DNA of 64,000 nt from Candidatus Bathyarchaeota archaeon (GTDB lineage: Archaea; Thermoproteota; Bathyarchaeia; Bathyarchaeales; Bathycorpusculaceae). The stretch lies in assembly GCA_963777155.1 (NCBI GenBank), contig CAVZPM010000009.1, forward strand, positions 32,001 through 96,000. Direction: 5' to 3'. Below, piece after piece: positions 9,905 to 33,144 of the stretch. The position numbers and the translations under genes are program-made. The first letter of the stretch is position 1, and each line of letters opens with the position of its first letter. The notes under the pieces were generated by a model, which saw nothing but the letters and a program-made list of their open reading frames with translations, made no database searches and had not been told where the DNA came from.

Positions 9905-10048
9905 GCAGCTGTCTCCTTTCGGATATATTCTTGTGAACTTGCAACCAATAAATATAGGGGTCCATTTTTTTCCGTAAGGATTGGTTTAATGTCTTTCCAG
10001 TTTTGGTTAACTTTATATGCGACTTACCGAAAAGATTTTGCGATAAAA

Positions 10049-10162
10049 GTGGAAATCGACAAAGCAGAGGACCTAAAGCAAACACTCGTGAATAGTGGTT
10101 ACTCTATCGATGTAGCTGAAAAAATTGTAGCGCACTATTTTAAAGATATTGAAAGTGTTTAA
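10049..10162 (+). CDS. Possible small protein (37 aa)
   Basis: GTG 10049 gives MEIDKAEDLKQTLVNSGYSIDVAEKIVAHYFKDIESV, an amphipathic two-helix pattern, with TATA-like TTTATA at ~10012. Confidence 0.4.
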   Translation: MEIDKAEDLKQTLVNSGYSIDVAEKIVAHYFKDIESV

Positions 10163-10763
10163 CGTACTCCAAGACTTTGTCAGCCTGTTCCTTAGAAATA
10201 TGTTTTCCCAGGTATAGTGAGTTTACGATATCCGTGATTTTTGCTAGAGAGTGAACTTGATAGCCGAGTTTTTCTAGTTTTTCTTTACCGCCGTGCTCAC
10301 GGTTTACCACGACTAGCAAATGTTTTACAGAGGCACCGAGATCCTGGAGGGGTTTAATGCCTTCGACTTTGGATAACCCTTCGCTTATTACGTCGTCGAA
10401 GAAGATTATTTGGTCGCCTTTGTTTACGTCTGCACCTGCTATTCTCCCTGTGACACCGTAGGCTTTCTCTTCTTTCCGGACAATAATGCAGGGTAGGTTT
10501 AGGTTGCAGGCAATGCTTGGCGCAATCAATGCACCCTTAAGTTCAATGGAAGCTAACTTGTCTATTTGGTCGACAGCCATTATTCCCTTGATCTTTTCCG
10601 AAGCGGCTTCAGCTATTGTGCAGAGTTGTTTCGGCGCAGAAAGCACTCGTGCTAAGTCGATGTAGTAAGGGCTTGTTGCTCCAGACTTGATTTTAAAACT
10701 ACCGAATTTTAAGCATCCGGAAAAATAAAGAGCGTCAGCCACTCTATCTGTAACAGTTGACAT
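10140..10763 (-). CDS. pyrE: Orotate phosphoribosyltransferase
   Basis: LKFGSFKIKSGATSPYYIDL, IVRKEEKAYG, FFDDVISEG PRPP loop. Confidence 0.92.
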   Translation of the reverse strand: MSTVTDRVADALYFSGCLKFGSFKIKSGATSPYYIDLARVLSAPKQLCTIAEAASEKIKGIMAVDQIDKLASIELKGALIAPSIACNLNLPCIIVRKEEKAYGVTGRIAGADVNKGDQIIFFDDVISEGLSKVEGIKPLQDLGASVKHLLVVVNREHGGKEKLEKLGYQVHSLAKITDIVNSLYLGKHISKEQADKVLEYVKHFQYL

Positions 10764-11151
10764 GTGAAATTTCCCTGAGTTGAATGCTCACTTGCAGATT
10801 TAACCCTTTACCATCTTATTTTTCGGTCACAAGGTGAGTTAAGAAGTAAGATTTTTCCCTCATTAGCCCATCGCAAAAAAGAGTCTGTTTTTTTCCTGAG
10901 CAAAAAGAAGGGAAGACTTTACAAACTTATGATTAAGAGTTATCTACGAATAGTTGCTGTTTGATAGGACAATAACAGTTGCATTTACAGAATTGGGTAA
11001 GGCTTGTTTTGGGTCGATTTTGATATTTGTTTTTGTAAAGGCTGCAGGGTACAGTGTAGAATTGTTAGAGAAGATGAGGTTCTTTTAGGCGCCGACTGAA
11101 TGAGAGCCCTCCGGATTTCCCAAGCCAACCGCAGGTTGAAAAAAACGAGGG

Positions 11152-12126
11152 TTAAACGACCAAGTCAGCCATGTCTACGCTTCTCTCGTAAATCTGCCTA
11201 AGAAAAGACACTGCCGACAAAATCTGAGGCATCAAATCTACCGACGAATCCTTCGCCAACTGTTCAATGCTTGAGTAGGTCGACTCGATTTTCTCGCGTA
11301 GATTTCGAACGTTTTCTGCTAATGAAATATCCTTGTTTAAGAAAGCTCTGATTGCTTGCTCGTTAGCTCCAGAACAGGCAAATAGCAGTTCAGACAGCAA
11401 CTTACGAAGGTCATCAGATAGTTTGATTCCGTTGAGTGCCAAAGTGTTTGAAGCAAACTGAACACAGGAGTCACCGATTCCTTCGATTAGGCTTGCAGCC
11501 AAACGATAGTCTAAGCACTCAATGGGCGTGATCCCAAGTTTATCACTCAACCTTGGATTCTGGATAATCGTCCGAAGAGTTCTTACGAGCAAAAAGTAAA
11601 GTCTGTTGCTTTCGTTGTCACGTGAGACCACGCTTTTAGCAAGCTCGAGATCGCTGTTAATAAAAGAGTTAGTGACATCTTTAATCATCCCTGCGACTAA
11701 ACCATGGTTTCGCTGTAGAATTTTTTCAGGCAAAAACCCAAAAGGTTGTTGTGATATGCTCTGTAGGGAAATCTTGCAAATGTTTTCTTCTACGATCTCT
11801 AAGCCTGCCAGAGAACTAGCTGTTGTCTTAACTATTTTTCTTGCAGTGGCATCGATCCGATCCTTGACTTCAATGTTAATAGTATCATAGCCTAACAAGT
11901 ATCGACCCACAATTTCACGCCCCAAAAAAGGACCGACACCCAAAATTGCAACTTTAGGTTCAGGTTCAGCCGCGTTCTTAGGATCAACAAGAAGTTTACC
12001 TTCACCTGTTACCTCCAAATTTACTAAAGCTCCTTTCTTTAAGCCGTTTTCTTTAGCCCAATCTCTGGGTAGGCAAACAAAGAAAGTTCCTGTTGGTGTT
12101 TGCTGAATTTTACGTGATTCACTCAT
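11152..12126 (-). CDS. phoU: Phosphate uptake regulator (AbrB N-domain + PhoU repeats)
   Basis: RKIQQTPTGTFFVCLPRDWA AbrB-like start, YLLGYD, RLYFLLVR, LIEGIGD. Confidence 0.88.
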   Translation of the reverse strand: MSESRKIQQTPTGTFFVCLPRDWAKENGLKKGALVNLEVTGEGKLLVDPKNAAEPEPKVAILGVGPFLGREIVGRYLLGYDTINIEVKDRIDATARKIVKTTASSLAGLEIVEENICKISLQSISQQPFGFLPEKILQRNHGLVAGMIKDVTNSFINSDLELAKSVVSRDNESNRLYFLLVRTLRTIIQNPRLSDKLGITPIECLDYRLAASLIEGIGDSCVQFASNTLALNGIKLSDDLRKLLSELLFACSGANEQAIRAFLNKDISLAENVRNLREKIESTYSSIEQLAKDSSVDLMPQILSAVSFLRQIYERSVDMADLVV

Positions 12127-12364
12127 ATGCATTTGCACCTTGGGAAGATATAACATATCTAAACTATGGTTTGATTATTTAAATTGAATTGATTTTACAT
12201 AACTTATCGACCAAAAATACAATTCTAAAAGAATAGAGCAAGAATCCTTGGTTTGAATTATTTTAAGAAAAAGAGAAAGGGAAAACAAAAAACAGTAAAT
12301 AACTCAAGAGCATAACTGCCTAACATAAAAATCGTCTCTGACTATTGGTCGAGGTAAGAACTCG

Positions 12365-13939
12365 ATGAACGCGCAAGAAAAACTTCAGAGGGCAATCCAA
12401 GTAACAATCGCCGCGGGATATCAACTAAACAGCGAAGCCTTCGAGTTTCTATGCCAAAACTGCGAAACAAGCGATCCAGTCACCATCATGAATCTCGCTT
12501 TTGAAAGGATACAGGCATTGCAGGAAAAGCCAATGTTTATTGAGAGAGGTTTTTTGGAAGCTCTCCTACAGCCTGCGATATCAGTGCTCGAAACACACTT
12601 GCCAGAGTTAAAAAAACCCCCAGAACCGCAAGCTACTATGGAACCTCTGACGACCCCAGAGACGATTATTGATGAAGCCGAATTCTATCCATACGCAAAA
12701 GACATACCTGCAGACTTCAAAATCATAGAAGACGCAACGGGCAAACTGAGCTCAAACGGAACACTCGACGAATACGTACTTTATTTTCAAGACCGCTTCA
12801 AACGCATTGAACACTTGCTAAGACAGAGAATGGACGTTAAAGCTGCAACCTCAATTCTGGAAGCATTAAAATCACCTGCAAAAACCAAACTAAAAATTAT
12901 CTGCATGTTAACTGAGAAGCGGGATTCAAAGAACCACACTATTCTTTCTGTTGAAGACTTGCAGGGTAGCGCAACTGTGCTGGTACCCCAAAAAGCGGCT
13001 GAAGAAGTTAAGAAGAAAGTCCTCATGCTTCTTCCTGATCAAGTAGTATGCCTGGCCGTAATCAAAACCCGAACCAACCTCCTAATGGTTGAAGACATTA
13101 TCTTTCCAGAGATAGGTAAAAAACAGCAACAGAGGGCAGAAGAACCAGTCTATGCAGTTCTTACTTCCGACATTCATATCGGTAGCACCAAGTTCACTAG
13201 AGATTCCTTTAAAAGATTCATACTCTGGCTCCAAGGTAAATACGGAACTCCAGAGATGCGGGAAATCGCTAGCCGAGTAAAGTACATCTTGGTCGCTGGA
13301 GACATTGTTGATGGCGTGGGAATCTATCCCGGCCAACAATATGAACTGACCATACGCGATGTGCACAAACAATATGACTTTGCTGCAAAATATCTTGAAA
13401 AGATTCCGGATTACATTGAAATCTTTCTCTCTCCGGGGAACCATGATGCAGCTCGTAAATCATTACCGCAACCAGCTATACCTGAAGGGTACCTAACAGC
13501 GATTAAAGGAAAAAAGAACATTCATTCAGTCGGTAGCCCATGTCTTCTAAGCCTTCATGGAGTTGAAGTTCTCATGTACCATGGTAGAAGTTTAGATGAC
13601 ATAATAGCGGTTATCCCTGGAATGGACCATGAACATCCCGAGAAAGCAATGCGGCTACTTATCCAGAGCCGTCATCTAGCACCTGTCTATGGCGGAAAAA
13701 CAATGCTTTCCCCAGAAAACCGAGATTACCTCGTTATCGACAGAGTGCCAGACATTTTCCATGCTGGGCACATACATGTTTTAGGTTATTGTAATTACCG
13801 TGGTGTGCTAGTTGTTAATTCGGGGGGTTGGCAAGACCAAACCGACTATATGGAGAAGTTAGGATTGGTCCCTACACCAGGAAAAGTGCCAGTGGTGAAC
13901 CTGCAAACAATGCATATTACTGTTTTGTCATTTAACTGA
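12365..13939 (+). CDS. polB: DNA polymerase D small (exonuclease) subunit DP1
   Basis: YFQDRF, OB fold, SDIHIGS, AGDIVDGVGIYPGQ, PGNHD, YHG, HLAP, FHAGHIH. Confidence 0.97.
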   Translation: MNAQEKLQRAIQVTIAAGYQLNSEAFEFLCQNCETSDPVTIMNLAFERIQALQEKPMFIERGFLEALLQPAISVLETHLPELKKPPEPQATMEPLTTPETIIDEAEFYPYAKDIPADFKIIEDATGKLSSNGTLDEYVLYFQDRFKRIEHLLRQRMDVKAATSILEALKSPAKTKLKIICMLTEKRDSKNHTILSVEDLQGSATVLVPQKAAEEVKKKVLMLLPDQVVCLAVIKTRTNLLMVEDIIFPEIGKKQQQRAEEPVYAVLTSDIHIGSTKFTRDSFKRFILWLQGKYGTPEMREIASRVKYILVAGDIVDGVGIYPGQQYELTIRDVHKQYDFAAKYLEKIPDYIEIFLSPGNHDAARKSLPQPAIPEGYLTAIKGKKNIHSVGSPCLLSLHGVEVLMYHGRSLDDIIAVIPGMDHEHPEKAMRLLIQSRHLAPVYGGKTMLSPENRDYLVIDRVPDIFHAGHIHVLGYCNYRGVLVVNSGGWQDQTDYMEKLGLVPTPGKVPVVNLQTMHITVLSFN

Positions 13940-13954
13940 CTTAGACACTACCAG

Positions 13955-15181
13955 CTAAATTCTTGTGGGATATTTGGGGGAATATTCAAATAAACGACTA
14001 AAGCGGTTATCACCACCAAGAACATCTCTAATCAAGCTACGGGAAATCTCCAGTCTAATCTTCTTAGTTCTGCCGTATCGACCCATGCTTACAACTTTTG
14101 CGTTTACAAGACCCATCGAATCAAGCTCATTGACCAAAGTACCTAAACGACGTTGCGTAAGAAGCCCAGAGCCCATCTCCCCGCACAATTCGTTGTAAAT
14201 GTCGTATATTTCCCCGGTTGTAGCGCTCGGTTTGTTTAGATGGTAAACACTCAACAGCACCAGCTTGGAATGCAAAGTCAAGTTATTTAGAGCTTCAACC
14301 ACACGGTTGTGCTCAATGTGTTTCTCCGCTTGGCGCACATGCTCTTCAGTAATTATTTTAGCACCTAAACGTTCAGCAACTTCTCCAGCCACGCGTAACA
14401 GATCCAAAGCTCGTCTAGCATCTCCATGTTCCGCTGCAGCTAAAGCTGAGCAAATACTTAATGCTGAATCAGATAACACTCCATCTTGGAAAGATAATTT
14501 TGAGCGTTCAAGCAAAATATTTCTGAGCTCACCAGCATCATACGGTCTAAAGACTAGTTCTTCTTCACTTAGTGAACTAAAGACCCGTGGGTCCAGAAAT
14601 TCTTTTAGGCGCAAATCATTGGATATACCGATTAGGGCAACTTTGCTTTTGGTTAGCGTTTCGTTTATCCTTGTCAATTCATACATGAATGCGTCGCCAT
14701 GTTCCTTAATCAACGCATCAACCTCATCTAAGACTATTATGAATATTACTCTAGATTGATCTAACCCTGCTCGGAATCTGTCGAAAACTTCTCCCGAAGA
14801 TAACCCTGTGAAGGGAATTGATAAACCCACACTTTGGCTCAGACTTGCAAAAACCCTATATTCAGAACCTGTCATCCTGCAGTTTATGTAGCAGAATTTT
14901 ACTTGCGCACCATACTCCTTAGCCTTGGATTCCAGATGACTTAAAACATATTTTGTTACAGCTGTTTTTCCTGTGCCAGTTTTTCCGTAAATGAAGATAT
15001 TTGAACATCTTGAGTCTCTCAACACTGGAGCAACCGTTGCACCTAAAAGTCTGATCTGGTCTTCGCGGTGTGGAAGCTTTTCAGGAAGATAATCATGTCT
15101 TAAGACCTCACGGTCCTTAAACAATTTAACACCGTTAACGAAGTTTTCGAATACATCATCTAATACATTTGAGTTGCCCAT
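13955..15181 (-). CDS. cdc6: Orc1/Cdc6 replication initiator
   Basis: LPHREDQI, GKTGTGKT, IVLDEVD, HGDARRALDLLR, C-terminal wHTH with GRYGRT. Confidence 0.98.
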   Translation of the reverse strand: MGNSNVLDDVFENFVNGVKLFKDREVLRHDYLPEKLPHREDQIRLLGATVAPVLRDSRCSNIFIYGKTGTGKTAVTKYVLSHLESKAKEYGAQVKFCYINCRMTGSEYRVFASLSQSVGLSIPFTGLSSGEVFDRFRAGLDQSRVIFIIVLDEVDALIKEHGDAFMYELTRINETLTKSKVALIGISNDLRLKEFLDPRVFSSLSEEELVFRPYDAGELRNILLERSKLSFQDGVLSDSALSICSALAAAEHGDARRALDLLRVAGEVAERLGAKIITEEHVRQAEKHIEHNRVVEALNNLTLHSKLVLLSVYHLNKPSATTGEIYDIYNELCGEMGSGLLTQRRLGTLVNELDSMGLVNAKVVSMGRYGRTKKIRLEISRSLIRDVLGGDNRFSRLFEYSPKYPTRI

Positions 15182-15217
15182 TAGCCCATCCCTCTTATTC
15201 TATAGGCAACACGGTTA

Positions 15218-15794
15218 TTTCGAGTGGAACAGATAAAGGATACACTACAAAAAACTGGTTTTAGAACACAACAATCCTAAAAATCAATGAAAACAAGCGT
15301 TAACAACCAAACAAAGCAAGAGAAGACACACCCCAACGCTTCTACTGGAGAAATAAGCCACTTAAAAGAAAAGTACTAATTATAATATATGTAAATATAT
15401 ACTCTGGTAGGTTAAAAGTTCTTAAGTATATTAATAATTGTCATCCAAGAAATTAGACAAACATTCTGCAAATATTTTTTCAAGCTTTCCTGTCTTCTTT
15501 TTATCCTAAAACTTCGAGAGGAAACGTAGGGGTGGCCCTAAAACTAATTTATCTATGGAAAACACTTGGTTATAGATGGCAAGTTGTTTGATTTTAGCAT
15601 AATCTCGGTATAATCAACTCCGAGTAAAATTTGCCTCTTTTCGGAATAAAATTATGTTTGGCTTCACGTTCACAAAATTGTGAATACGTATGAAATAACA
15701 AAAATTCTGTTGGATTGTCAAGCTCTTTTTCCTATTAATTACCCTATTTCTGTCTTTCACAAGTGAATAAGCCACCCCTTCACTTCTACTGGAA
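15218..15794. other. oriC: Replication origin oriC with ORB elements and AT-rich unwinding tracts
   Basis: ORB-like boxes: TTTCGAGTGGAAC (+15218), CTCCAGTAGAAGCGTTGGGGT (-15330..15350), TTCGAGAGGAAACGTAGGGGT (+15513..15533), TTCCAGTAGAAGTGAAGGGGT (-15774..15794). Very AT-rich tract at 15361-15480. Lies directly upstream of cdc6. Confidence 0.9.
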
Positions 15795-15989
15795 AACCGA
15801 AACAAGGACTGAACAATAATCTTTCAGCCTATCTGTTTATCTGTGAAGCTGGTAATAGCAATAAAGCTCCAAAAACAGCCGAATCAGCAAAAACAAGCAC
15901 TAATCCACCTTTTCATATGTGTCCAATTCACCGTAACAGCTTTAAGGTGTGAAGTGCAAAGTTGTGAACAACCTTAAGGTGTATCTGGG

Positions 15990-16418
15990 ATGCCGGCTCG
16001 TAAAATGCGCGTTGAGCTGTTCGATAGCGATGGTAATCGATATACCATTGCTTTTGAGGGTCAAGTAACCCGCGATAAAGCTCTGCGCCTACTTGACCTT
16101 GTCGAATTGCTAGGTGGTACACCTGGAGAAGGTCCAACTGTAAGCACAGGGCCAGTGATGCCTAACCGTGCCTTGTCACGTTTTGAGAAAGTCCAGTTGG
16201 TTATCCAAAAGAATTTTCCATTAATTTGGTTCTCTTCTAAAGACATTCAATCCATTTATGAACAGGAACTCAAAGAGCCAGTTGGCCTAAGCACTGTATC
16301 CACTTACCTCTCAAGGATGTCTGCTAAAGGTATGCTGATGAGGACTGGCGGATCAAACAGCCTCAAATACAAGACTGCGCCAAATGTTCCACAGGCAATT
16401 AAGCAGCGTATAAAATAG
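15990..16418 (+). CDS. Uncharacterised origin-adjacent protein with C-terminal winged HTH
   Basis: Small N-domain, Pro/Gly linker, then FSSKDIQSIYEQELKEPVGLSTVSTYLSRMSAKGML..T...KY wHTH pattern. Confidence 0.8.
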   Translation: MPARKMRVELFDSDGNRYTIAFEGQVTRDKALRLLDLVELLGGTPGEGPTVSTGPVMPNRALSRFEKVQLVIQKNFPLIWFSSKDIQSIYEQELKEPVGLSTVSTYLSRMSAKGMLMRTGGSNSLKYKTAPNVPQAIKQRIK

Positions 16419-16476
16419 CTTCACAATCTCTTCACAATATAGCATCAACTTGTGAATGAAGCTAAAGATTTTATTG

Positions 16477-17337
16477 TTAGGTTGTTGGAGGTTCAGCCTT
16501 CTGTAGCAGAGCTTCCATTTCTTTCTTGATAGTATAGAGGAACGGAATCTTTCCTGCTTCCCTCTCAACATATCCTTCTTCATAGATCTTCTTCATCAAC
16601 CGTGCAGTATGCTCTCTACTAAGGTGGACTCTCTCTTTGATTTCCGGGGCAGTCTTCGCGCCTTCTTTTAAGAGCATTTCAAGCACTGTGATCTCTGTGT
16701 CAGTTAGAGCTGCTAAGGCTTTGTCGCGTCTAATGGGTACAGGTGGCAATAGAATTTCTGTTCTAATCTCTTGCTGTGGTTGAGCAACGGATAGTTTCTG
16801 GATTTGTTCCTCGAACCCTGCAATTCTATTTTTAAGAGATTCCTGTGTAGCCACGATGTCTTGGAGCTTTGCCTCTAATCCGGACAACCCAGACGTGATG
16901 GTGACATTGTTTTGCGTGTTTACTGATAAGTTCTTCGTAATTGTCTTTGACATCTCTTGCTGTGATTGGCTAAGCGCGCTAAGTTGGATTTCGAGTGGCT
17001 CGATTTTGCCCTCTAATCTTTCTGCTTTTCGGTGGCTGGCATCAGCTGCGATGTAGCTGCCATCGACTTTGGAAACCATTGTGTCAAATTTGTTAGCTTC
17101 ACGTTTTAATTCACGGTTGAAACTTAGCACAATATCCTCAATGAACTCTCTAGCTTTCTCATATTCTCTATGTGCCCTGCGTATTTGACGATAATATTCA
17201 TACGCAGCTACCGCTGTTAAAGCTAATAATACGCCAAAGATTATTGCCGTTAGGTCAACCGTACTTTTCCTCCCCTGTGATTTGACCGTGACCCCGCGTG
17301 ATTTAACGGTTGCATCACACATCACAGTATTCTCCAT
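16477..17337 (-). CDS. Membrane-anchored coiled-coil protein with C-terminal winged HTH
   Basis: TM LTAIIFGVLLALTAVAAYEYY, long heptad-rich region, then LTDTEITVLEMLLKEGAKTAPEIKERVHLSREHTARLMKKIYEEGYVER wHTH. The real start may be near 17262. Confidence 0.85.
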   Translation of the reverse strand: MENTVMCDATVKSRGVTVKSQGRKSTVDLTAIIFGVLLALTAVAAYEYYRQIRRAHREYEKAREFIEDIVLSFNRELKREANKFDTMVSKVDGSYIAADASHRKAERLEGKIEPLEIQLSALSQSQQEMSKTITKNLSVNTQNNVTITSGLSGLEAKLQDIVATQESLKNRIAGFEEQIQKLSVAQPQQEIRTEILLPPVPIRRDKALAALTDTEITVLEMLLKEGAKTAPEIKERVHLSREHTARLMKKIYEEGYVEREAGKIPFLYTIKKEMEALLQKAEPPTT

Positions 17338-17560
17338 GGAAATTTAAGGTTATTGGTGACATCAATCCATGTTAGATATGACATCACACATCACAAACCG
17401 CCAAAATCCCTTCTGCTTATGTTTATCCATGTGTTAAAATAGCTTTGATTTAGCCTTATTTTGTGGAATAATCCTTGATTATTGAACCTGCGTGATATGT
17501 GATTTACTTCCTAAAAATATGGAAAAAATGATTGAATAACCTGTGATTTGTGACGTCACA
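17272..17560. repeat. Array 1 of the GTGAY/CCTGTGAT motif (13 copies)
   Basis: GTGAY or its reverse complement at 17277, 17288, 17298, 17314, 17321, 17356, 17383, 17390, 17492, 17499, 17543, 17550, 17555. Includes the palindrome TGTGACGTCACA at 17549-17560. Confidence 0.85.
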
Positions 17561-18053
17561 GGAGCTCTTCTGATGGACTAGAAAGCCGTTTTAAGCTCGT
17601 TTCGAGCTCCGTTCTGATGATTTCTATGACTTTTAGGTGGTCTTTTAGTTCCTCTTCCTTGCTAGGTATGTCCTGGTGAGCCTCGACATATTCGTGCAGT
17701 TTATTGGCTATTTCGAGGTATGGGTCGAGAGTTGTGGTCTCAAAAACACCCAAATACCCTAGAAGTAGTACTGTGTAGATGGATTTAATGACGTTTTCAT
17801 TGGACTGTTTTAAGGTCCTATTAAACGATCCACGACTTATTTTAGCCCTTGTTAGCCTTAAAGCGGCTTTTTCATCGTACTTTAGCTGTTTACCCGATAT
17901 ACTCTCGGCTAAAACGTTAATGAGCAAAGTTTCCAGTTGTGTTTTTGTTAAATGGCTATTTTTAGCCAGAATTTGCACAATAGGGTCGTTTAACGCCCCA
18001 TTTAACCAAGCTGTTACGCCGTCTTTTAGCTTCAAATCTATGCTTTCCTCCAT
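17556..18053 (-). CDS. Uncharacterised HTH-like protein
   Basis: LTKTQLETLL...YDEKAALR...ISRGSFNRTLKQS (sigma-70 r4/Tfx-like HTH pattern), followed by IYTVLLLGYLGV. Confidence 0.78.
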   Translation of the reverse strand: MEESIDLKLKDGVTAWLNGALNDPIVQILAKNSHLTKTQLETLLINVLAESISGKQLKYDEKAALRLTRAKISRGSFNRTLKQSNENVIKSIYTVLLLGYLGVFETTTLDPYLEIANKLHEYVEAHQDIPSKEEELKDHLKVIEIIRTELETSLKRLSSPSEELL

Positions 18054-18402
18054 ACTCCAAATGGATACAGATTTGTATACTGCGCCTGCTTTTTATCCTT
18101 TAGACGGACCCTAAACTCTCAAAACCGCTCAATAAAATGGTCAAAACAGCACTAAAACGCTAAAATAACTCTAAATTTCAGACCTTTATTAAAATCTACA
18201 GTAATTTGGTACAATTAACATAATAAAGGCTAAAATATCGGGAGGTTTTTCAGTGAATATGCCTGAACTTTACACAAAAAATGCACTTTTGTAGGCGCAC
18301 CAAACCCGCCACACCTCTTTTTTTAATATTTCCGACGAAATAGCACACAGTTTTAGCTGCCTATTCTATAATTAAAACACATTTTTACATGCAAGTCTCC
18401 CA

Positions 18403-18495
18403 TGTGACACCATTAAAAAAACCTGTGATGTCACTAAAAAACCGTGATTTAGCCAAAATTCACTTGATATCACAACCCTGTGATTCACCTGTGAT
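18403..18495. repeat. Array 2 of the GTGAY/CCTGTGAT motif (7 copies)
   Basis: Copies at 18404, 18425, 18430, 18444, 18469, 18480, 18491. AAAAAACC(T)GTGAT occurs twice. Confidence 0.85.
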
Positions 18496-18530
18496 GCCAA
18501 ACTCCAAGGCGACGATATATGTGTGAGGTG

Positions 18531-19364
18531 CTAAATTTGCTCTGAAAGCCGCTTTAGTTGATCATAAATCTCCGGTCTGAGATCACGGAGTGTAGGAATG
18601 AATGTTTCAGCGGCCCTCAAATCGCCAAAATCTACTTCGCAGACCACAAAATCCTCTTCATCATACTTTGCTTTAGCTAAAACGTCGCCTGTTGGACCCA
18701 CAAGGCGACTTCCACCCCAAAACTGCAGCCCATCCTCAACTCCTGCAAGGTTAACATATGCGAGATACGCGGTATTTTCCAAGGCTCTGGCGGCTGTTAG
18801 GATTTCAAAGTAGCCTCTACGCACCGCCGGTGACGCGGAAATGCAGATTATGAGTTGTGCACCCTTCAATCTCGGCAGCCTAAATACTTCTGGAAAGAAA
18901 ACATCATAGCAAATTGTTAATCCAATGTTTCCGATTTCAGTTTGGAAAGCCGCTGGCTCATATCCAGGCCGAAAATATCTTTTCTCCTCAAACACGCTGT
19001 GAGTAGGCAAGTACATTTTTCGGTATTTACCGATTAAACCCTGTGGCCCAATAAAGACTGCGGTGTTATAGACTGTTGCTTGAGTTTTTTCGCTTAGTTC
19101 AGGCATCCCAAAAATGATGTACATACCTGTTTTCTTGGCTAGCGTCGTTATCTTCTCAGTTGTGGGTCCAGGAATTGTTTCAGCCAACTCGTATACTTGA
19201 TCTAAAATAACATAACCCGTCAAGCACATCTCGGGAAAAATGGCTATATCTGCACCCTGCCGTTTTGCTTCTAAGGTCAAATTCTCAATTTTTTGCAAGT
19301 TCTCGGTTTTGTTTTCCCGTTTACTACTTATCTGGCACAGGGCAAGTTTGATTTTATGCTTCAT
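18531..19364 (-). CDS. Nitrilase-family carbon-nitrogen hydrolase (possible glutaminase partner of NadE)
   Basis: FPE, YRKMYLP, ICYD (E-K-C triad), ARALEN, FWGGS. ATG 19364 is the likely start. Confidence 0.92.
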   Translation of the reverse strand: MKHKIKLALCQISSKRENKTENLQKIENLTLEAKRQGADIAIFPEMCLTGYVILDQVYELAETIPGPTTEKITTLAKKTGMYIIFGMPELSEKTQATVYNTAVFIGPQGLIGKYRKMYLPTHSVFEEKRYFRPGYEPAAFQTEIGNIGLTICYDVFFPEVFRLPRLKGAQLIICISASPAVRRGYFEILTAARALENTAYLAYVNLAGVEDGLQFWGGSRLVGPTGDVLAKAKYDEEDFVVCEVDFGDLRAAETFIPTLRDLRPEIYDQLKRLSEQI

Positions 19365-19374
19365 TTTTCCACTT

Positions 19375-20235
19375 TCAATAGATGTGTCTTGGGAGCCTAA
19401 AATCGTTTCCCACAGTTCTAAACCCAATTTTGGGCGCAATAGGCATTCTTCTTTTATGCTCGTTTGCCAACCAACGAGCTTTTACCTTATCCACTAAATT
19501 CTGTTCAAGATCCAACTGAATCGCGATGTCATTGGTTGTCAAGAAGCGTTCAAGCCCATAGAGGATTAGGTCTAAGGTTTCATATTTGATTCCCAGTTCT
19601 GACTCAGCTAACTGATTCGGCCAGAGCGCAGGTGTCGAAGGCTTCAACGCAAGTTCCTTGGGTATGCCAATATGTATTGCGAGTTTACGTACTTGTGTCT
19701 TGTAGAGGTCAATTATTGGCGCTATGTCTGCTGCTGCGTCTCCCCACTTGGTAAAGTAGCCCATCATCGTCTCGGACTTGTCGGAGCTACCACAGACGAT
19801 TCTGTTCTGTTTGTTAGCGTAGTAATAGAGGTAAATCATTCGTGTCCTAGCCTTGATGTTGCCTTTACAAAGTCTATCTGATTGGTCAAAAACAGGAATT
19901 CCCCCGTAGAAGCAGCTCAAAACCTTGGACATATCGCAAACTTGCGTTTGCAGATGAAATAGTTCTGCAACCACTTTGGCGTCATCAATGTCTTTTTGAT
20001 TAAAATTTTCCTTTTCAGGCAACATTAGGCCTAAGACGTTTTCGCCCCCCACTGCTTGGCTCGACAGACCCGCGATGGTTGCACTGTCCACTCCTCCGGA
20101 GAGACCTAGAACAATCCCTTTTGCCCCTGTGTTTTGAACGTATTCTTTGATGAATCGGCAGATCCTTTCTTGAGTCTCCAAAAAATCTATCTCTAACAAG
20201 GACAGCGTTAACTTCACTTGCAATGGCAGCCTCAA
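19375..20235 (-). CDS. nadE: NAD+ synthetase
   Basis: LGLSGGVDSA, GNIKARTRM, GYFTKWGD, DLYKTQV. Confidence 0.96.
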   Translation of the reverse strand: MRLPLQVKLTLSLLEIDFLETQERICRFIKEYVQNTGAKGIVLGLSGGVDSATIAGLSSQAVGGENVLGLMLPEKENFNQKDIDDAKVVAELFHLQTQVCDMSKVLSCFYGGIPVFDQSDRLCKGNIKARTRMIYLYYYANKQNRIVCGSSDKSETMMGYFTKWGDAAADIAPIIDLYKTQVRKLAIHIGIPKELALKPSTPALWPNQLAESELGIKYETLDLILYGLERFLTTNDIAIQLDLEQNLVDKVKARWLANEHKRRMPIAPKIGFRTVGNDFRLPRHIY

Positions 20236-20316
20236 TAACGATGGTTAGTAGGCAAGTATTTAAGGACAAGCATAAATATTATGAACATTACCAGACGAGT
20301 GAAGAAGGTTTATTGT

Positions 20317-20580
20317 ATGGGGCGAAGAAGGAAAAAAGTTGTTCATATCCCAAAAAAACGATTACCAAAGTTCTTCTCTTGCCCTAGATGCGGAAAAGAA
20401 ACTGTGAGAGTAGAAATCGTCAGGGAAGAAGGTGGTCATGCGACTGCGCAATGCAGCAGTTGTGGCCTTAAAGAAGACTTCCCAGTTAAATCAGCACAAG
20501 GCGAAGTTGACGTTTACTGCATGCTAACCGACAGCGTTTACGGCACCCAAAAAAGAACACCCGTAATAAAAAAAGAGTAA
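20317..20580 (+). CDS. elf1: Transcription elongation factor Elf1
   Basis: MGRRRKK...LPKFFSCPRCG...CSSCG...VDVY. Confidence 0.88.
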   Translation: MGRRRKKVVHIPKKRLPKFFSCPRCGKETVRVEIVREEGGHATAQCSSCGLKEDFPVKSAQGEVDVYCMLTDSVYGTQKRTPVIKKE

Positions 20581-20596
20581 CTGAAGGATCTTTTGT

Positions 20597-21343
20597 ATGC
20601 TTGGACCTATCGAACGGTACTTGCTTGAAAAAATAAAAACCGATCGCTCAATCCACATAACACTTATAGACCCGGAAAAAGTAACTGCTTCCGCAGCATC
20701 ACAGATTGCAGAAAGTTCTAAAAACAGTGGAACAGCCGCCATTATGATTGGAGGCTCGACCTTTGTTTCTGAAAATCATCTCGACGATGTTGTAAAAGCA
20801 ATCAAATCGAAAGTGAACATTCCAACTATTCTTTTCCCAAACAACGTCACAGGAATAAGTAGCCACGCAGACGCGATATGGTTCATGTCCCTGCTTAACT
20901 CAGTAGACCCCTATTTTCTTATTGGCGCTCAAATCTTGGGTGCCCCCCTCGTTAAGAAATATGGTATCGAACCGATTTCTATGGGCTACATCATTGTCGG
21001 CGACGGAGGAACCGCTGGCATCGTTGGGAAAGCAATCTCTGTTCCTTACAACAAGCCTGAACTTGCGGCAGCTCACGCTCTTGCAGGTCAATATCTTGGT
21101 ATGCGTTTTATCTATCTTGAAGGTGGCTCTGGAGCAGCAAACCCTGTCCCTCCTGAAATGATTAGTGCTGTTAAGCACCTGATTGATATTCCCTTGATTG
21201 TCGGGGGCGGCATAAGAAGCAAAGAGCAAGCGTTCACTGCAGCTTCAGCTGGAGCCGACATAATCGTCACGGGAAACGTCACAGAGTCAAACGATGCAAA
21301 CAAGAGAATATCCGAAATCATCGCAGCGATAAAAACAGGATAA
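20597..21343 (+). CDS. pcrB: Geranylgeranylglyceryl phosphate synthase
   Basis: TLIDPEK, IMIGGST, ILFP, YLEGGSG, VGGGIR, IVTGN. Confidence 0.95.
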   Translation: MLGPIERYLLEKIKTDRSIHITLIDPEKVTASAASQIAESSKNSGTAAIMIGGSTFVSENHLDDVVKAIKSKVNIPTILFPNNVTGISSHADAIWFMSLLNSVDPYFLIGAQILGAPLVKKYGIEPISMGYIIVGDGGTAGIVGKAISVPYNKPELAAAHALAGQYLGMRFIYLEGGSGAANPVPPEMISAVKHLIDIPLIVGGGIRSKEQAFTAASAGADIIVTGNVTESNDANKRISEIIAAIKTG

Positions 21344-21435
21344 ATCTTGAAGTTACTTTTAGTTTTTTGTTTTCTTTCTTATTTTAGAAAGCCAAAATAA
21401 CCCATCTTTCTATATCTTGCGGGAGAGCTGTAAAC

Positions 21436-24400
21436 TTGAATATTAGCAAGGGCTATCAAAATTACGTTGAGACACTGGAAAACCAGTTAAGACAACTCTA
21501 CATCATAAGCGATAGCGCCCGAACAAAAGGGCTCGACCCTGCACTAAAAACAGAATGCATAAGAGCTCAGGACATCGCCGATTTGGTAGAAGGTTTGGTT
21601 GGGCCTAAAGGTGTTGCCCTTAGCATCCGTGAGCTCAGCAGCAAGATGCCTCGTGAAGAAATAGCCTTCAAGGTTGCCCAAGAAATTGCTCAAGGCAAAT
21701 TCGCTCAAATGGATCAAGAGCAGCTGGCTGAGCAGGCTATTCGAACGGCGTTAGCAATCTTCACAGAGGGCTTAACCGCGGCGCCAATTCAAGGTATTGC
21801 GCAGGTTAAAATTAAAACAAACGCTGACAGGTCTCGTTATCTTGCGGTTTATTTTGCTGGGCCTATTCGTTCAGCAGGCGGCACAGATCAAGCATTGACT
21901 TTGGTAGTGGGCGATTATGTGCGGCGTGAACTCAACCTGGATAGGTATAAACCCACCGAAGAAGAAGTTTCCCGTTTCGTAGAAGAGCTGCGCCTCTATG
22001 AACGCTCCGTTGGGCGTTTTCAGTATCACATTCCAGACGAAGAACTTCGAAAAGCGCTAAACCTAATTCCTGTCGAATGTACAGGCACAGAATCCGACCC
22101 CGTTGAGGTGTCATCATACCGTAACTTGCAAAGAGTTGAAACAAACCGCGTCCGAGGCGGTGCCCTCCGTGTTGTAAACGATGGCATAGTAGGACGCGCC
22201 CAAAAAGTCTATGTAATCATCGACAAGTTAGGTTTCCAAGGCTGGGACTGGCTGAAAGAGTTCAAGAAGAAATCCGAGAAAAAATCCGGTGGCTTCATGG
22301 ATGACGTCATCGCAGGGCGCCCAATTTTTGCTTTTCCTTCAACCCGTGGCGGTTTTCGCCTAAGGTACGGTAGGTCACGAAACACTGGGCTATCAGCCGT
22401 AGGTATTCATCCTGCAACAATGGCTGTGGTTGAAAATTTTCTTGCAGCTGGCACACAGATGCGTCTGGAATTACCCGGTAAAGGCGGTGTCACTATGCCA
22501 GTCGATAGCATCGAGCAGCCTGTGGTTTTGCTCAAGGATAACTCAGTAGTTCGTGTGTCGCTTGAAAATTACGGCGATATTAAGGGTAAGATTCAAAAAA
22601 TCCTCTTCCTCGGAGATATTCTCATTGATTTTGGCGATTTTCTCTATTGCAACAAGGCACTTCCACCCTCGGGATACGTAGAGGAATGGTGGGCTAAAGA
22701 CCTTCAGAATGCGTTATTCGCTAAATATGGCGCTGATTATAGAAAGACTACAATCTCTTGTAATCTTTCCGTGGAAAAGTTGGAAAGTTTCATACTTGAC
22801 CCTTTTCTAAACAAACCCACAGTTAAAGAGGCAATCGCGCTTAGTCAAAACATAGGTGTCCCACTGTCCCCTAATTGCACGTTCTTCTGGACAAGTTTAT
22901 CTACTATTCAAGAAGTCGAATCCTTGCGAAATTGGTTGGCTTGCTCCGACGTAACTGTAGATGATAGGGGTATCTCTAAAATCACGGGAACTGCTAATAA
23001 TGATGTCGTTACGTCGCTTCGAAAGATCTTTGCACCCCATCGAATCGTCGACGGCAAAGTAGAGTTAATTGGTGAAGATGCGGCTGCTTTCGGATTCACT
23101 CTCGGTTACGGCAATCCACGGTTCACTCAGCCTTTGCAAGCGACTTCGGTACTTGAGTTGCTGAGCCTGCTATCTGGCGTGCAAATCAAAGATAAAGCAC
23201 CAACATACGTGGGTGGACGCATGGGTAGACCCGAAAAAGCCAAACACCGCGAAATGAAGCCAAACGTCCATGTCCTTTTTCCAGTTGGTTTGAAGGGTGG
23301 CTCCCACCGTGATCTGATGGAAGCGGCACGGCAGGGTCCAGTGTTCGTCGAGTTAGCTAAACGCAAATGTCCCAACTGCAAAACATATACACCCAAAGTT
23401 AAATGTGACAACTGTGGCTTTGAAACCGTCCACGAGAAAAGCTGCCCGCGCTGCGGCAGAACAGTGAAAGATAGCGGATGTTCAACCTGTAAAACAGACG
23501 GTGTCCTCTATCAACGGCAGCCTATTAACTTCAAAGAACAAATAGACAAAGCATCAAGCAACCTTGGCTGCCAGGCGCCAAAAATGCTGCGCGGCGTTAA
23601 AGGCTTAACCAACGCAGATAAGACCCCTGAAATCATCGAAAAAGGCATCTTAAGGGCAAAGCATGGATTATCTGTTTACAAGGATGGTACCATACGCTTC
23701 GACGCCACAAACGCTCCCTTAACACATATTACACCAGCTGAAGTCGGTGTATCGATCGAAAAGATGCATCAGATGGGATACCTCGCGGACACCAATGGAT
23801 TACCCTTAACTGACCCTAACCAAGTCTGTGAACTAAAAATTCAAGATGTCGTTATTCCTTGGCGTGCAGGAGAATACTTCGTCCAAATCGCCGCATTCAT
23901 CGATGATCTATTAACTCGTGTGTACAAGCAACCTGTCTTCTATAATGTTAAGAAGGCTGAAGATTTGGTTGGTCACTTGCTTTTTGGGTTGGCGCCGCAC
24001 ACATGTGCTTGCATTTTAGGAAGAGTGGTCGGTTTTACTGATCGTAACTTGATTTATGCTCATCCTGTTTGGCATTCGGCTAAACGTCGTGACTGCGACG
24101 GAGACGAAGACGCCATCATGCTTGCGCTCGACACGTTGATAAACTTTTCACGAATCTATTTGCCTGCGCAAATCGGCGGAATCATGGACGCGCCAATCTT
24201 GCTTATCCCCTTTGTGAACACTAAAGAGGTGCAACGGCAAGCCCACGACTTTGACGTCAGCGCCACCTACCCCATAGAATTTTATAAGAAGACTTTGGAG
24301 AAGTGCGATGCAAGACCCGCAAGTGCTTTAATGGATGTCATTAGTCATCGATTGGGAACTGAAGCCCAGTTTGAAGGCTTCCAATACACAACTCCGTGCA

Positions 24401-31815: not shown

Positions 31816-33144
31816 ATGGATGTTCTAGAAAAAGCCTATGAGATTCTCAGCAAATTCCCGCTTTGTGACCACTGTTTAGGTAGACAATTCGCGTTGTTGG
31901 GTTACAGCATGGAGAACAACGTGCGGGGGAACGCATTAAAAGTCAGTTTGACAATGCTTGCCAATGATCTTGCCCAGGAAAAAAAAGTCGAGGGCATAAA
32001 ACGCCTTAAAGTGCTGGCAACGAACGGTTTTTCCAGAGAAGCGCGGGAAACGCTAAAACACTTGAAGAAGCGCCTGCCAAAAAACGAGACGGTTAAATGT
32101 AGCCTCTGCGACGGAAAGTTCGAGATAGTTGACTGCCTAACCCAAAAAGCCCTCCAAGCCGTCGATGGCTTCGAGTTTACTACTTTTCTTGTCGGGATTG
32201 AATTGCCACTGCAGATTGAGGAGCGTGAGGATGAGTTCAAAGCAGCCGTCAACGTTGGTTATGGCGAGAGTATGAAACATGAATTCGGGCGCTTACTTGG
32301 CAAATCAGTTGCTAAGCATACATGCAAGGAAGCAGACTATCTAAAACCCGACATAGTTTTTGTTTTTAATCCTTTCTTAGAAACAGTTCGACTTCAAGTT
32401 AACCCTCTTTTCGTCGCTGGTAGATACCGTAAACTAGTTCGCACTATTCCACAGTCGAAGTGGTTCTGTTCCAGCTGTCGAGGTAGAGGATGTGAGAAAT
32501 GTGGTGGAACAGGAAAACTTTACCCTGAATCGGTAGAGGAGCTATCCTCTAAACCGCTGCTTGAGGCAACCGTGGGAGAGGAAGCATTTTTGCATGCTTC
32601 CGGGCGAGAAGATATCGATGCACGGATGCTGGGTACCGGGAGGCCGTTTGTAATTGAAGTTTCGAAACCTAAGAAACGGTTTGTTGATTTAAATCATATT
32701 GAAACTCAGGTCAATGTGAACGCAGTTGGAAAGGTAGAAGTTTCGGGTTTACATTTTACCACTAAGGATGTTGTAAGACACCTCAAGAATGGTGAGGGTG
32801 CCCAGAAAGAATATCAACTGCTAGCGGAGTTTGAGAATGACCCATCAGAAAAAGATCTCCGTACCATCGAGGAGAAGCTATCGGGTATTTGTATTAGACA
32901 GCAGACGCCTCTTCGCGTTTTGCATCGAAGGGCAGATTTAATCCGAGAAAAGTACATATATCAGGTTAAAGTTAAGAAGGTGTCGCTTAAGAGGGTCCTG
33001 ATGGAAATTCGTTGCCAAGGTGGACTCTACGTTAAAGAATTGGTATCTGGAGATGAAGGACGCACGAACCCAAACGTTTCGGATTTGCTCAACAACAGAG
33101 CGAAGACGCTTAAGCTTGACGTTCTCAACGTAATAATGGAATAG
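31816..33144 (+). CDS. pus10: tRNA pseudouridine(54/55) synthase
   Basis: CDHCLGRQF, GRYRKL, SGREDIDARMLGTGRPF, QQTPLRV, GGLYVKEL. Confidence 0.96.
   Translation: MDVLEKAYEILSKFPLCDHCLGRQFALLGYSMENNVRGNALKVSLTMLANDLAQEKKVEGIKRLKVLATNGFSREARETLKHLKKRLPKNETVKCSLCDGKFEIVDCLTQKALQAVDGFEFTTFLVGIELPLQIEEREDEFKAAVNVGYGESMKHEFGRLLGKSVAKHTCKEADYLKPDIVFVFNPFLETVRLQVNPLFVAGRYRKLVRTIPQSKWFCSSCRGRGCEKCGGTGKLYPESVEELSSKPLLEATVGEEAFLHASGREDIDARMLGTGRPFVIEVSKPKKRFVDLNHIETQVNVNAVGKVEVSGLHFTTKDVVRHLKNGEGAQKEYQLLAEFENDPSEKDLRTIEEKLSGICIRQQTPLRVLHRRADLIREKYIYQVKVKKVSLKRVLMEIRCQGGLYVKELVSGDEGRTNPNVSDLLNNRAKTLKLDVLNVIME

Follow-up and report, generated by a model that had tools for sequence, protein, structure and literature searches.

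The window analysed here is a 64,000-nucleotide stretch of the genome of a Candidatus Bathyarchaeota archaeon (assembly GCA_963777155.1; 2.29 Mb, or 2,288,322 bases, in 39 contigs), namely positions 32,001 to 96,000 of contig CAVZPM010000009.1 (C9:32001-96000). Close to its replication origin, oriC, it carries three small genes for proteins of DNA-binding type, which we call g1, g2 and g3, and two dense arrays of the short motif GTGAY. Our favoured reading, which we hold probable by a modest measure, is that g2 is a membrane-attached coiled-coil protein with a TrmB-type winged helix that binds the GTGAY arrays, represses its own gene, closes a DNA loop and keeps the bound DNA at the membrane. 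An earlier note on this DNA had taken the three genes for a single origin-tethering or segregation module. Judged by their conservation, they are not one: g1 goes with cdc6 and oriC, g3 is near-universal and has an operator of its own, and g2 forms together with the GTGAY sites an accessory unit that is lost independently.

The three open reading frames (ORFs) lie where the earlier note had placed them, 0.2-2.3 kb from the origin recognition box (ORB)-like repeats of oriC: g1 at 15990-16418 (plus strand, 142 residues), g2 at 16477-17337 (minus strand, 286 residues) and g3 at 17556-18053 (minus strand, 165 residues). Its count of 20 motif copies in two arrays also holds, with 13 GTGAY half-sites in array 1 (17277-17559), in the promoter and leader region of g2, and seven in array 2 (18404-18495), 350-450 bp upstream of g3; the half-sites occupy both strands, and the arrays do bracket g3. 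Set against a genome background of 2.31 GTGAY per kb (5276 matches in 2,288,322 bases), the two 300-bp intervals that cover the arrays, with 12 and 8 half-sites, are the densest of the assembly, in which only 8 of 22,783 intervals hold at least 7. One other interval ties at 8 (C13:56051, on another contig); it owes its count to a coding tandem repeat at C13:56060-56320, about eight copies of a 30-bp unit that encode a Pro/Thr/Val-rich linker and are unrelated to the arrays. Genome-wide, then, the motif clusters only at this locus instead of being evenly spread, and sites are present at the orthologous loci of relatives, both of which the proposal of a dedicated array had demanded. The composite sites found elsewhere (8 of 12 heptad pairs and 2 of 4 palindromes) are isolated and scattered, and there is no sign of a regulon.

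The half-site extends to T-GTGAY-n-T, and its copies prefer three spacings: direct at 7 bp, inverted at 5 bp, where two copies form the contiguous palindrome GTGAYRTCAC, and direct at 10-11 bp. Array 1 ends in the palindrome GTGACGTCAC, which overlaps the stop codon of g3; the stretch ctGTGATttGTGACGTCACa is conserved in the genus alignment, and the TGA within it is that stop codon. Array 2 holds the palindrome GTGATGTCAC and an ATCAC-N6-GTGAT element resembling the Thermococcales glycolytic motif (TGM). Between the site clusters there are AT-rich stretches. A conserved CTTAAA box lies upstream of the g2 array region, and by the usual archaeal spacing the transcription start of g2 is predicted to fall within TGTGATGTGTGAT in the genus. 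A second palindrome is found in many families directly after a TATA-like box, 15-25 bp before the start of g2, which is where archaeal repressors classically bind.

The overlap of array 1 with the 5' end of g2, which the earlier note had remarked upon, is probably an effect of annotation. The first ~25 codons of g2 in the window consist of motif copies, and in 18 of 23 same-genus matches the aligned stretch contains in-frame stops; because the relatives carry these stops, we place array 1 in the promoter and leader of g2 and not in conserved coding sequence. The ORF is open from the ATG at 17337 or that at 17322, and its true start is uncertain, probably downstream of 17322. A GGAGG-like box is conserved 6-7 nt ahead of a conserved ACG in this start region, and one subclade (L036) has a clear TTG start. 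The exact 286-residue product is absent from the public protein collection.

The C-terminal domain of g2 (residues 211-270, about 16528-16707) belongs to the TrmB/MarR winged helices, matching Pfam TrmB with an E-value of 9e-8 and 32.3 bits (cut-off 25.6) and MarR with 4.7e-6 and 26.8 bits (cut-off 24.6), so that the winged helix-turn-helix (wHTH) attributed to g2 stands. A 19-residue hydrophobic segment near the N-terminus (residues 27-45, about 17203-17259), with a hydropathy peak of 2.28 and basic residues after it, leads us to infer insertion into the membrane, and the ~150 residues in between give only weak matches, to coiled-coil families. A Pfam scan with E-values up to 1 finds no sugar-binding effector domain; in TrmB proper and TrmBL1 that domain is C-terminal, whereas in g2 the C-terminal position is taken by the wHTH itself. 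The match to the NCBIfam Lrs14 model NF040939 (28 bits against a cut-off of 90) indicates resemblance in the wHTH only, and a match to Sta1 is likewise below threshold. The recognition helix, REH..R..K, is invariant throughout the class, and the order of transmembrane segment, coiled coil and wHTH is kept in homologues at class level and in genomes bearing amoA. Thus g2 combines a DNA-binding domain and a predicted membrane-binding element in one polypeptide, as proteins of the RacA, RocS and RicO type do.

In the window's order, the unit is common and its position fixed. The g2 gene is found in 35 of 41 relatives, the window's genome included (27 of 30 high-quality genomes), and it adjoins g3 in all 34 order-level loci fetched; wherever the contigs reach, the block polD-cdc6-g1-g2-g3-nitrilase-nadE-GGGPS-polD is kept. 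In every one of these 34 loci, either the spacer of g2 and g3 or the stretch right before g3 contains the densest GTGAY interval, and the genus alignment displays conservation site for site between diverged flanks. In other families of the order, two genes on the strand of g1 stand between g1 and g2 (L041:7099-9631; L044-L050), one for a 333-residue protein without a Pfam family and one for a 519-residue HerA-type ATPase (DUF87, E-value 1.4e-7), a pair that is absent from the window's genus.

A link between g2 and the arrays comes from 40 class-level loci around g3, 27 with g2 and 13 without. Since raw interval counts were misled by GTGAY clusters in hypF, which are by-products of the coding motifs TRDPDVIACD and QHHHAH, half-sites were re-counted in the 272 bp that begin 12 bp before the g3 stop codon. 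This region holds 3-13 half-sites in the loci with g2 and 0-2 in those without, except for one locus, L070, which has five; this locus is uninformative because a scaffold gap of 100 N occupies precisely the expected place of g2. Within 60 bp of the g3 stop codon, 24 of the 27 loci with g2 have a palindrome, as does only one of the 13 others, again L070; at order level, 33 of 34 loci have one. In eight genomes lacking g2 at the locus, the g2 profile gives no match covering the wHTH anywhere. A PolD tree (57 rows, FastTree, rooted with an amoA-bearing outgroup) shows four changes of state in g2, and in each of the four independent pairs the sites follow. With this phyletic match, an invariant recognition helix facing an invariant half-site, and the precedent of GTGATA recognition in the TrmB family, g2 is the likely binder of the arrays. 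Of the proposal that one of the three proteins coats the arrays, the part that survives is thus g2 as the best candidate.

The unit extends beyond Bathyarchaeia. Of 151 genomes in the phylum, 108 have a match to the g2 profile (E-values up to 1e-5), the weaker ones covering the coiled coil only. In a family of another class, f39, the profile matches in 19 of 19 genomes, and archaeal amoA is present in all four of those tested. The gene order there is polD-cdc6-g1-g2-g3-GGGPS-polD; g2 has ~205 residues with membrane segment, coiled coil and the helix SREHTSRLMKKL, the g3 homologue has ~120, and g1 is present too. At six f39 loci there are 10-13 GTGAY per 300 bp over the 3' end of g3 and the g3-g2 spacer. 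The composite ATCAC-N5-ATCACA occurs one to three times per genome in five f39 genomes, always once at the locus. In a further family, f45 (L187, L188, L194), a g2-like coiled-coil wHTH gene adjoins g1, a gene combining HTH_3 with a CBS pair, and hypF, and g3 was not detected; GTGAY sites stand ahead of the g2-like gene, nine per 300 bp in L187 and L188 and five at the comparable position in L194.

By its distribution, g1 travels with cdc6 and oriC and is separate from the g2 unit. At three loci (L067, L074 and L088) it remains beside cdc6 although g3 is kilobases away, and its profile finds nothing in five genomes searched from families f24, f21 and f33, which keep g3, g2 and the sites; it is this combination, g1 staying when g3 moves and going unmatched where the adjacent cdc6 is gone, that ties it to cdc6/oriC. 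The sole Cdc6 of those five genomes is of a type 30-34% identical and is located elsewhere. The wHTH proposed for g1 is borne out by an AlphaFold2 model (pLDDT 72.2) with a conserved N-terminal β-hairpin and helix followed by a C-terminal winged helix, for which the top Foldseek matches are MecI, RosR and the DNA-binding domain of Fur (E-values about 5e-3, none reaching 1e-3). A predicted complex of g1 with Cdc6 scored 0.00, which gives no verdict and counts neither way. The g1 promoter (15935-15982) contains the TATA-like CTTTAAGG, two direct TGTGAA repeats (15948-15968) and the near-palindrome ACCTTAAGGT before the start, elements that aligned upstream regions keep through the genus and partly through the order; the repeats and ACCTTAAGGT together are likely the operator of g1. 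Between the convergent ends of g1 and g2 (16421-16456), two copies of TTCACAA and one inverted TTGTGAA occur, in only some relatives of the genus.

The third gene is widespread, its profile being matched by a single copy in 164 of 201 genomes of the class (111 of 121 of high quality). The helix-turn-helix (HTH) claimed for it is only partly supported. Neither Pfam nor NCBIfam has a family matching g3, and its structure model is poor (pLDDT 61.4) and all-helical. Foldseek against the PDB yields nothing below an E-value of 0.86, and the profile run against PDB sequences yields chance matches to release factor 2 only. What points to an HTH is a profile-profile comparison (hhalign) with DUF134, built on proteins from relatives, at 85.9% and an E-value of 5.2e-6 over 24 columns only; these cover the recognition helix, to which the invariant g3 stretch ISRGxFNRTLxQ aligns. 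By hmmscan, DUF134 appears in one of 20 g3 members (E-value 0.064), and a language-model search (Atlas) gave a weak Sigma70_r4 lead (score 0.79). The g3 leader has a motif of its own, ATAC-N5-7-GTAT, which in 34 of 40 class-level loci (L055-L094) stands between the start and a TATA-like box whether or not g2 is there, and which amoA-bearing genomes (L181-L186) share; its form in the window, the palindrome ATACA-N4-TGTAT at 18065-18078, is a candidate operator and likely the site at which g3 regulates itself. Both g1 and g3 look like separate DNA-binding proteins, each with its own motif and apparently self-regulated. Two further blocks, ttaacataataaaggctaaaat at 18215-18237 and aactttacacaaaaaatgcacttttg at 18272-18300, are conserved although the rest of the spacer that separates g3 from array 2 is not; there is neither a conserved ORF nor an Rfam match.

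The spacing of the arrays suggests a bridged loop across g3. Measured in 81 loci of the genus, the distance from the palindrome on the g3 stop codon to the upstream one is 848-888 bp (median 876), and the ~311-321-bp spacer from array 2 to the promoter block of g3 is close to random (identity 0.61-0.68 against 0.59-0.61 for shuffled sequence); it is because length is constrained and sequence is not that a bridge is suggested. The upstream array of f24 and f21 falls within the nadE reading frame (L062:9126-9326, L064:9270-9400, L079:6016-6103), roughly as far from g3 as the window's intergenic array is. Two GTGATATCAC palindromes stand there, in sequence encoding the peptide PERDITSERDIT, and we read the embedded array as selection on the DNA. 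The mechanism that we propose would begin with g2 dimers binding the GTGAYRTCAC palindromes and the half-sites phased at 7, 10 and 11 bp. Sites over the TATA-proximal region and the predicted transcription start would let g2 repress g2, and this placement at the promoter makes autorepression likely. In the genus, g2 would bridge the site at the g3 stop codon and the second array ~876 bp away, enclosing g3 in a loop. Provided that the hydrophobic segment is a true anchor, g2 would finally hold the bound DNA at the membrane. In most lineages that DNA would lie 1.5-3 kb from oriC, and the pairing of g2 with the arrays may in this way hold origin-proximal DNA at the cell membrane.

Several observations weigh against this reading, or at least against its wider form. 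Ahead of the membrane segment (17240-17337), most relatives within the genus have stops and lack an in-frame ATG, GTG or TTG. The g2-like proteins of f45 have no membrane segment at all, so that not every member of the wider family has the anchor. The placement of the sites is what an ordinary autorepressor would show, the simplest loci have just two palindromes and a few half-sites, and coding constraint can also yield GTGAY clusters, as the hypF motifs illustrate. The co-occurrence of g2 and sites comes down to four independent events, kin not being independent, and four pairs cannot reach significance (sign test, p 0.125). The unit was lost repeatedly, at least four times on the PolD tree, and is therefore dispensable. 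Finally, f24, f21 and f33 keep g2, g3 and the sites while the adjacent cdc6 and g1 are gone; in one genome assembled as a single contig of 2.3 Mb, the remaining Cdc6 is 344 kb from g3. The synteny with cdc6/oriC is found across the order, widely in the class and in f39, with the sites 1.5-3 kb from ORB boxes here and in most relatives, and fails in f24, f21 and f33, which have only a distant, other Cdc6. Linkage to the origin is thus usual and not obligatory, and the repeated loss of the unit, together with its persistence away from cdc6, weakens any required role in segregation or replication.

Much of this evidence would also suit plain transcriptional control, in which g2, tethered to the membrane, represses its own gene and gates g3 as well, and a membrane or cell-cycle cue perhaps leads to its release or degradation; contact between DNA and membrane would then be incidental and would position no chromosome. 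We regard this as a tentative possibility, to be taken seriously. Palindromes adjoin the TATA-like box ahead of g2 in many families, our own reading of the alignment puts the predicted transcription start in the genus within TGTGATGTGTGAT, private promoter motifs of like style occur at g1 and g3, the unit is dispensable and persists away from cdc6, and TrmB-family proteins are classical regulators (PMC4706686). However, 20 half-sites in two arrays far exceed the need of one promoter, array 2 lies 350-450 bp from the start of g3 and in some families inside nadE coding sequence, the spacing is length-constrained over a near-random spacer, and a regulator with no target beyond its own locus needs some local purpose. 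The earlier note had named ordinary autoregulation at a single promoter site as the outcome that would count against it; the placement at the g2 promoter does fit ordinary autorepression.

In the opposite direction, g2 on a centromere-like array beside oriC could be an archaeal anchor free of any NTPase that attaches the origin region to the membrane. Cells would use it to separate sister origins or to link initiation with the growth of the membrane, its conservation would reach from Bathyarchaeia as far as the ammonia-oxidising Nitrososphaeria, and it would set the levels of g2 and g3 as well. This would be a literal version of the membrane attachment of the replicon model, and we consider it doubtful. 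No ParA/SegA-type ATPase is present, as had been stated: CbiA (PF01656) and AAA_31 (PF13614) have no above-cut-off match in the window, the nearest lying more than 30 kb past its end. The window therefore lacks the partner NTPase that ParABS, SegAB and ParMRC systems have beside the centromere-binding gene, within a search that did not include the ParM and TubZ families.

That some protein other than g2 binds the arrays (g3, g1, the HTH_3 and CBS-pair regulator or an unlinked factor), with g2 a neighbour by chance, we judge unlikely. The arrays do bracket g3, and in several orders they precede an HTH_3 and CBS-pair gene that itself precedes g2; L070, moreover, has sites and that gene while g2 is not detected. 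Yet 12 class-level loci have g3 and no sites, and the conserved operator of g3 is another one; g1 goes unmatched in the searched genomes that keep the sites, so that both are ruled out as binders on phyletic grounds; the HTH_3 and CBS-pair gene is absent from the locus in the window's order, and the gap in L070 falls at the expected place of g2. As an observation in its own right, this gene lies between g3 and g2, directly upstream of g2 and with GTGAY sites ahead of it, at loci L060, L068, L080, L087, L089, L094, L070, L190 and L192 of other orders.

More improbable still, indeed very unlikely, are arrays that serve as replication elements of oriC, be it as additional sites for the initiator, as a second origin or as a fork barrier. 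ORB boxes beside cdc6 and the PolD genes are 1.5-3 kb away, AT-rich stretches occur between site clusters, and the synteny is deeply conserved; but no ORB-like box occurs in or beside the arrays, the sites stay where the adjacent cdc6 is lost and vanish with g2 while cdc6/oriC stays, and the half-site fits the TrmB-type wHTH precedent and not the ORB (PMC4706686). A mobile element or plasmid iterons are ruled out by the synteny polD-cdc6-g1-g2-g3-...-polD over the order, the class and another class.

The surroundings of the unit are those of an archaeal origin. The gene of the PolD small subunit (12365-13939, plus strand) is followed by the orc1/cdc6 initiator gene (13955-15181, minus strand; Pfam Cdc6_lid 2.3e-24 and Cdc6_C 1.6e-23), syntenic in relatives, and by a spacer of 808 bp before g1. 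This spacer contains the core of oriC (15329-15796) with ORB-like boxes at 15329-15352 and 15773-15796 in direct orientation and at 15513-15536 inverted (repeats D2 and I7). With up to three mismatches allowed, the ORB-like pattern has two matches in the whole assembly, both inside the spacer, and 24 of 29 relatives have at least two copies between cdc6 and g1; since the boxes are unique to the spacer and conserved, we accept it as oriC, its ORB repeats adjoining orc1/cdc6 as in other archaeal Orc1/Cdc6-ORB origins. Beyond g3 come a 477-bp spacer, a nitrilase-family gene, nadE, GGGP synthase and then the PolD large subunit. An Rfam scan of 10000-24000 (E-values up to 1) returned zero matches. 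A second Orc1/Cdc6 paralogue, 30% identical to that of the window, lies on another contig of the genome (C35:46959-48059) and may mark a second origin; it is of the one type that f24, f21 and f33 still have.

We know of no account of chromosome positioning or segregation in Bathyarchaeia and Nitrososphaeria, a question that was not searched directly and that none of the papers returned addresses for either group, and the literature searched, supplements not covered, gave no published description of the g2/GTGAY system; by a term search, the Bathy-6 genome paper mentions neither cdc6, orc1, replication nor segregation. The locus thus offers a concrete candidate for chromosome positioning, one protein and one short motif across two classes, which include amoA-bearing genomes of about 1.6 Mb with cultured relatives. 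If its role is only regulatory, it would present an unusual membrane-anchored archaeal transcription factor with a multi-site, length-constrained operator at a single locus, around a class-wide gene by the origin. In either case, dividing the three origin-adjacent DNA-binding genes into units with their own cis-motifs aids the annotation of genes such as g1 and g3, whose public protein records read "hypothetical protein".

Among known systems, plasmid centromeres that double as operators offer one comparison. In ParR/parC, TubR/tubC and AspA of pNOB8, phased repeat arrays before the gene of the binder act both as operator and as the site of nucleoprotein assembly, and these systems run with a motor (ParM, TubZ and ParA, respectively). 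The arrays of roughly helically phased short repeats ahead of g2, the candidate binder's own gene, are similar; unlike these systems, the g2 locus is chromosomal, g2 itself appears to be anchored, and the window has no ParA/MinD-type gene. Tethers of origin to membrane, such as RacA acting on ram sites in Bacillus and RocS in Streptococcus, form a functional class and not a homology family.

The closest sequence precedent for the DNA-binding domain is TrmBL1, a TrmB-family member which binds TATCAC-N5-GTGATA, the TGM, and acts as a repressor from sites downstream of the promoter or TATA box; the abstract gives 28 binding sites from chromatin immunoprecipitation with sequencing (ChIP-seq) and the text 37 peak regions (PMC4706686). 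Like TrmBL1/Tgr, g2 has a TrmB-family winged helix and is paired with a GTGAT(A) half-site that can stand as an inverted repeat (ATCAC-N6-GTGAT in array 2). TrmBL1 as described there is soluble and has a sugar-sensing C-terminal domain and a regulon, whereas g2 has an N-terminal membrane anchor, by prediction, and a long coiled coil, lacks a sensor domain, and has a single locus, where as many as 20 half-sites make up contiguous palindromes and direct repeats in phase.

For g1, the comparison is functional and concerns UBP, the binder of the ucm motif at Sulfolobales origins, which is described as a β-rich, saddle-shaped nucleoid protein with hundreds of sites that is not encoded at the origin (PMC12141716). 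Like UBP, g1 would be a small accessory protein of DNA-binding type, encoded across oriC from cdc6; in contrast to UBP as described, its model has a winged helix and a small N-terminal domain.

The closest functional analogue of g2 in the literature consulted appears to be RicO of Staphylococcus aureus with its ricS sites. RicO carries its DNA-binding domain at the N-terminus and an amphipathic helix at the C-terminus and occupies nine sites over about 700 kb, and its function is established by ChIP-seq and counts of anucleate cells (bioRxiv 10.64898/2026.03.06.710092). Against that description, g2 has the reverse arrangement of a predicted N-terminal transmembrane helix and a C-terminal wHTH, with no sequence relationship found or expected; its candidate sites make up one 1.3-kb locus that includes its own promoter. 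What the two would share is a site-specific DNA-binding domain, a coiled coil and a membrane element in one protein, sites near the replication origin, and an anchoring that itself needs no dedicated NTPase.

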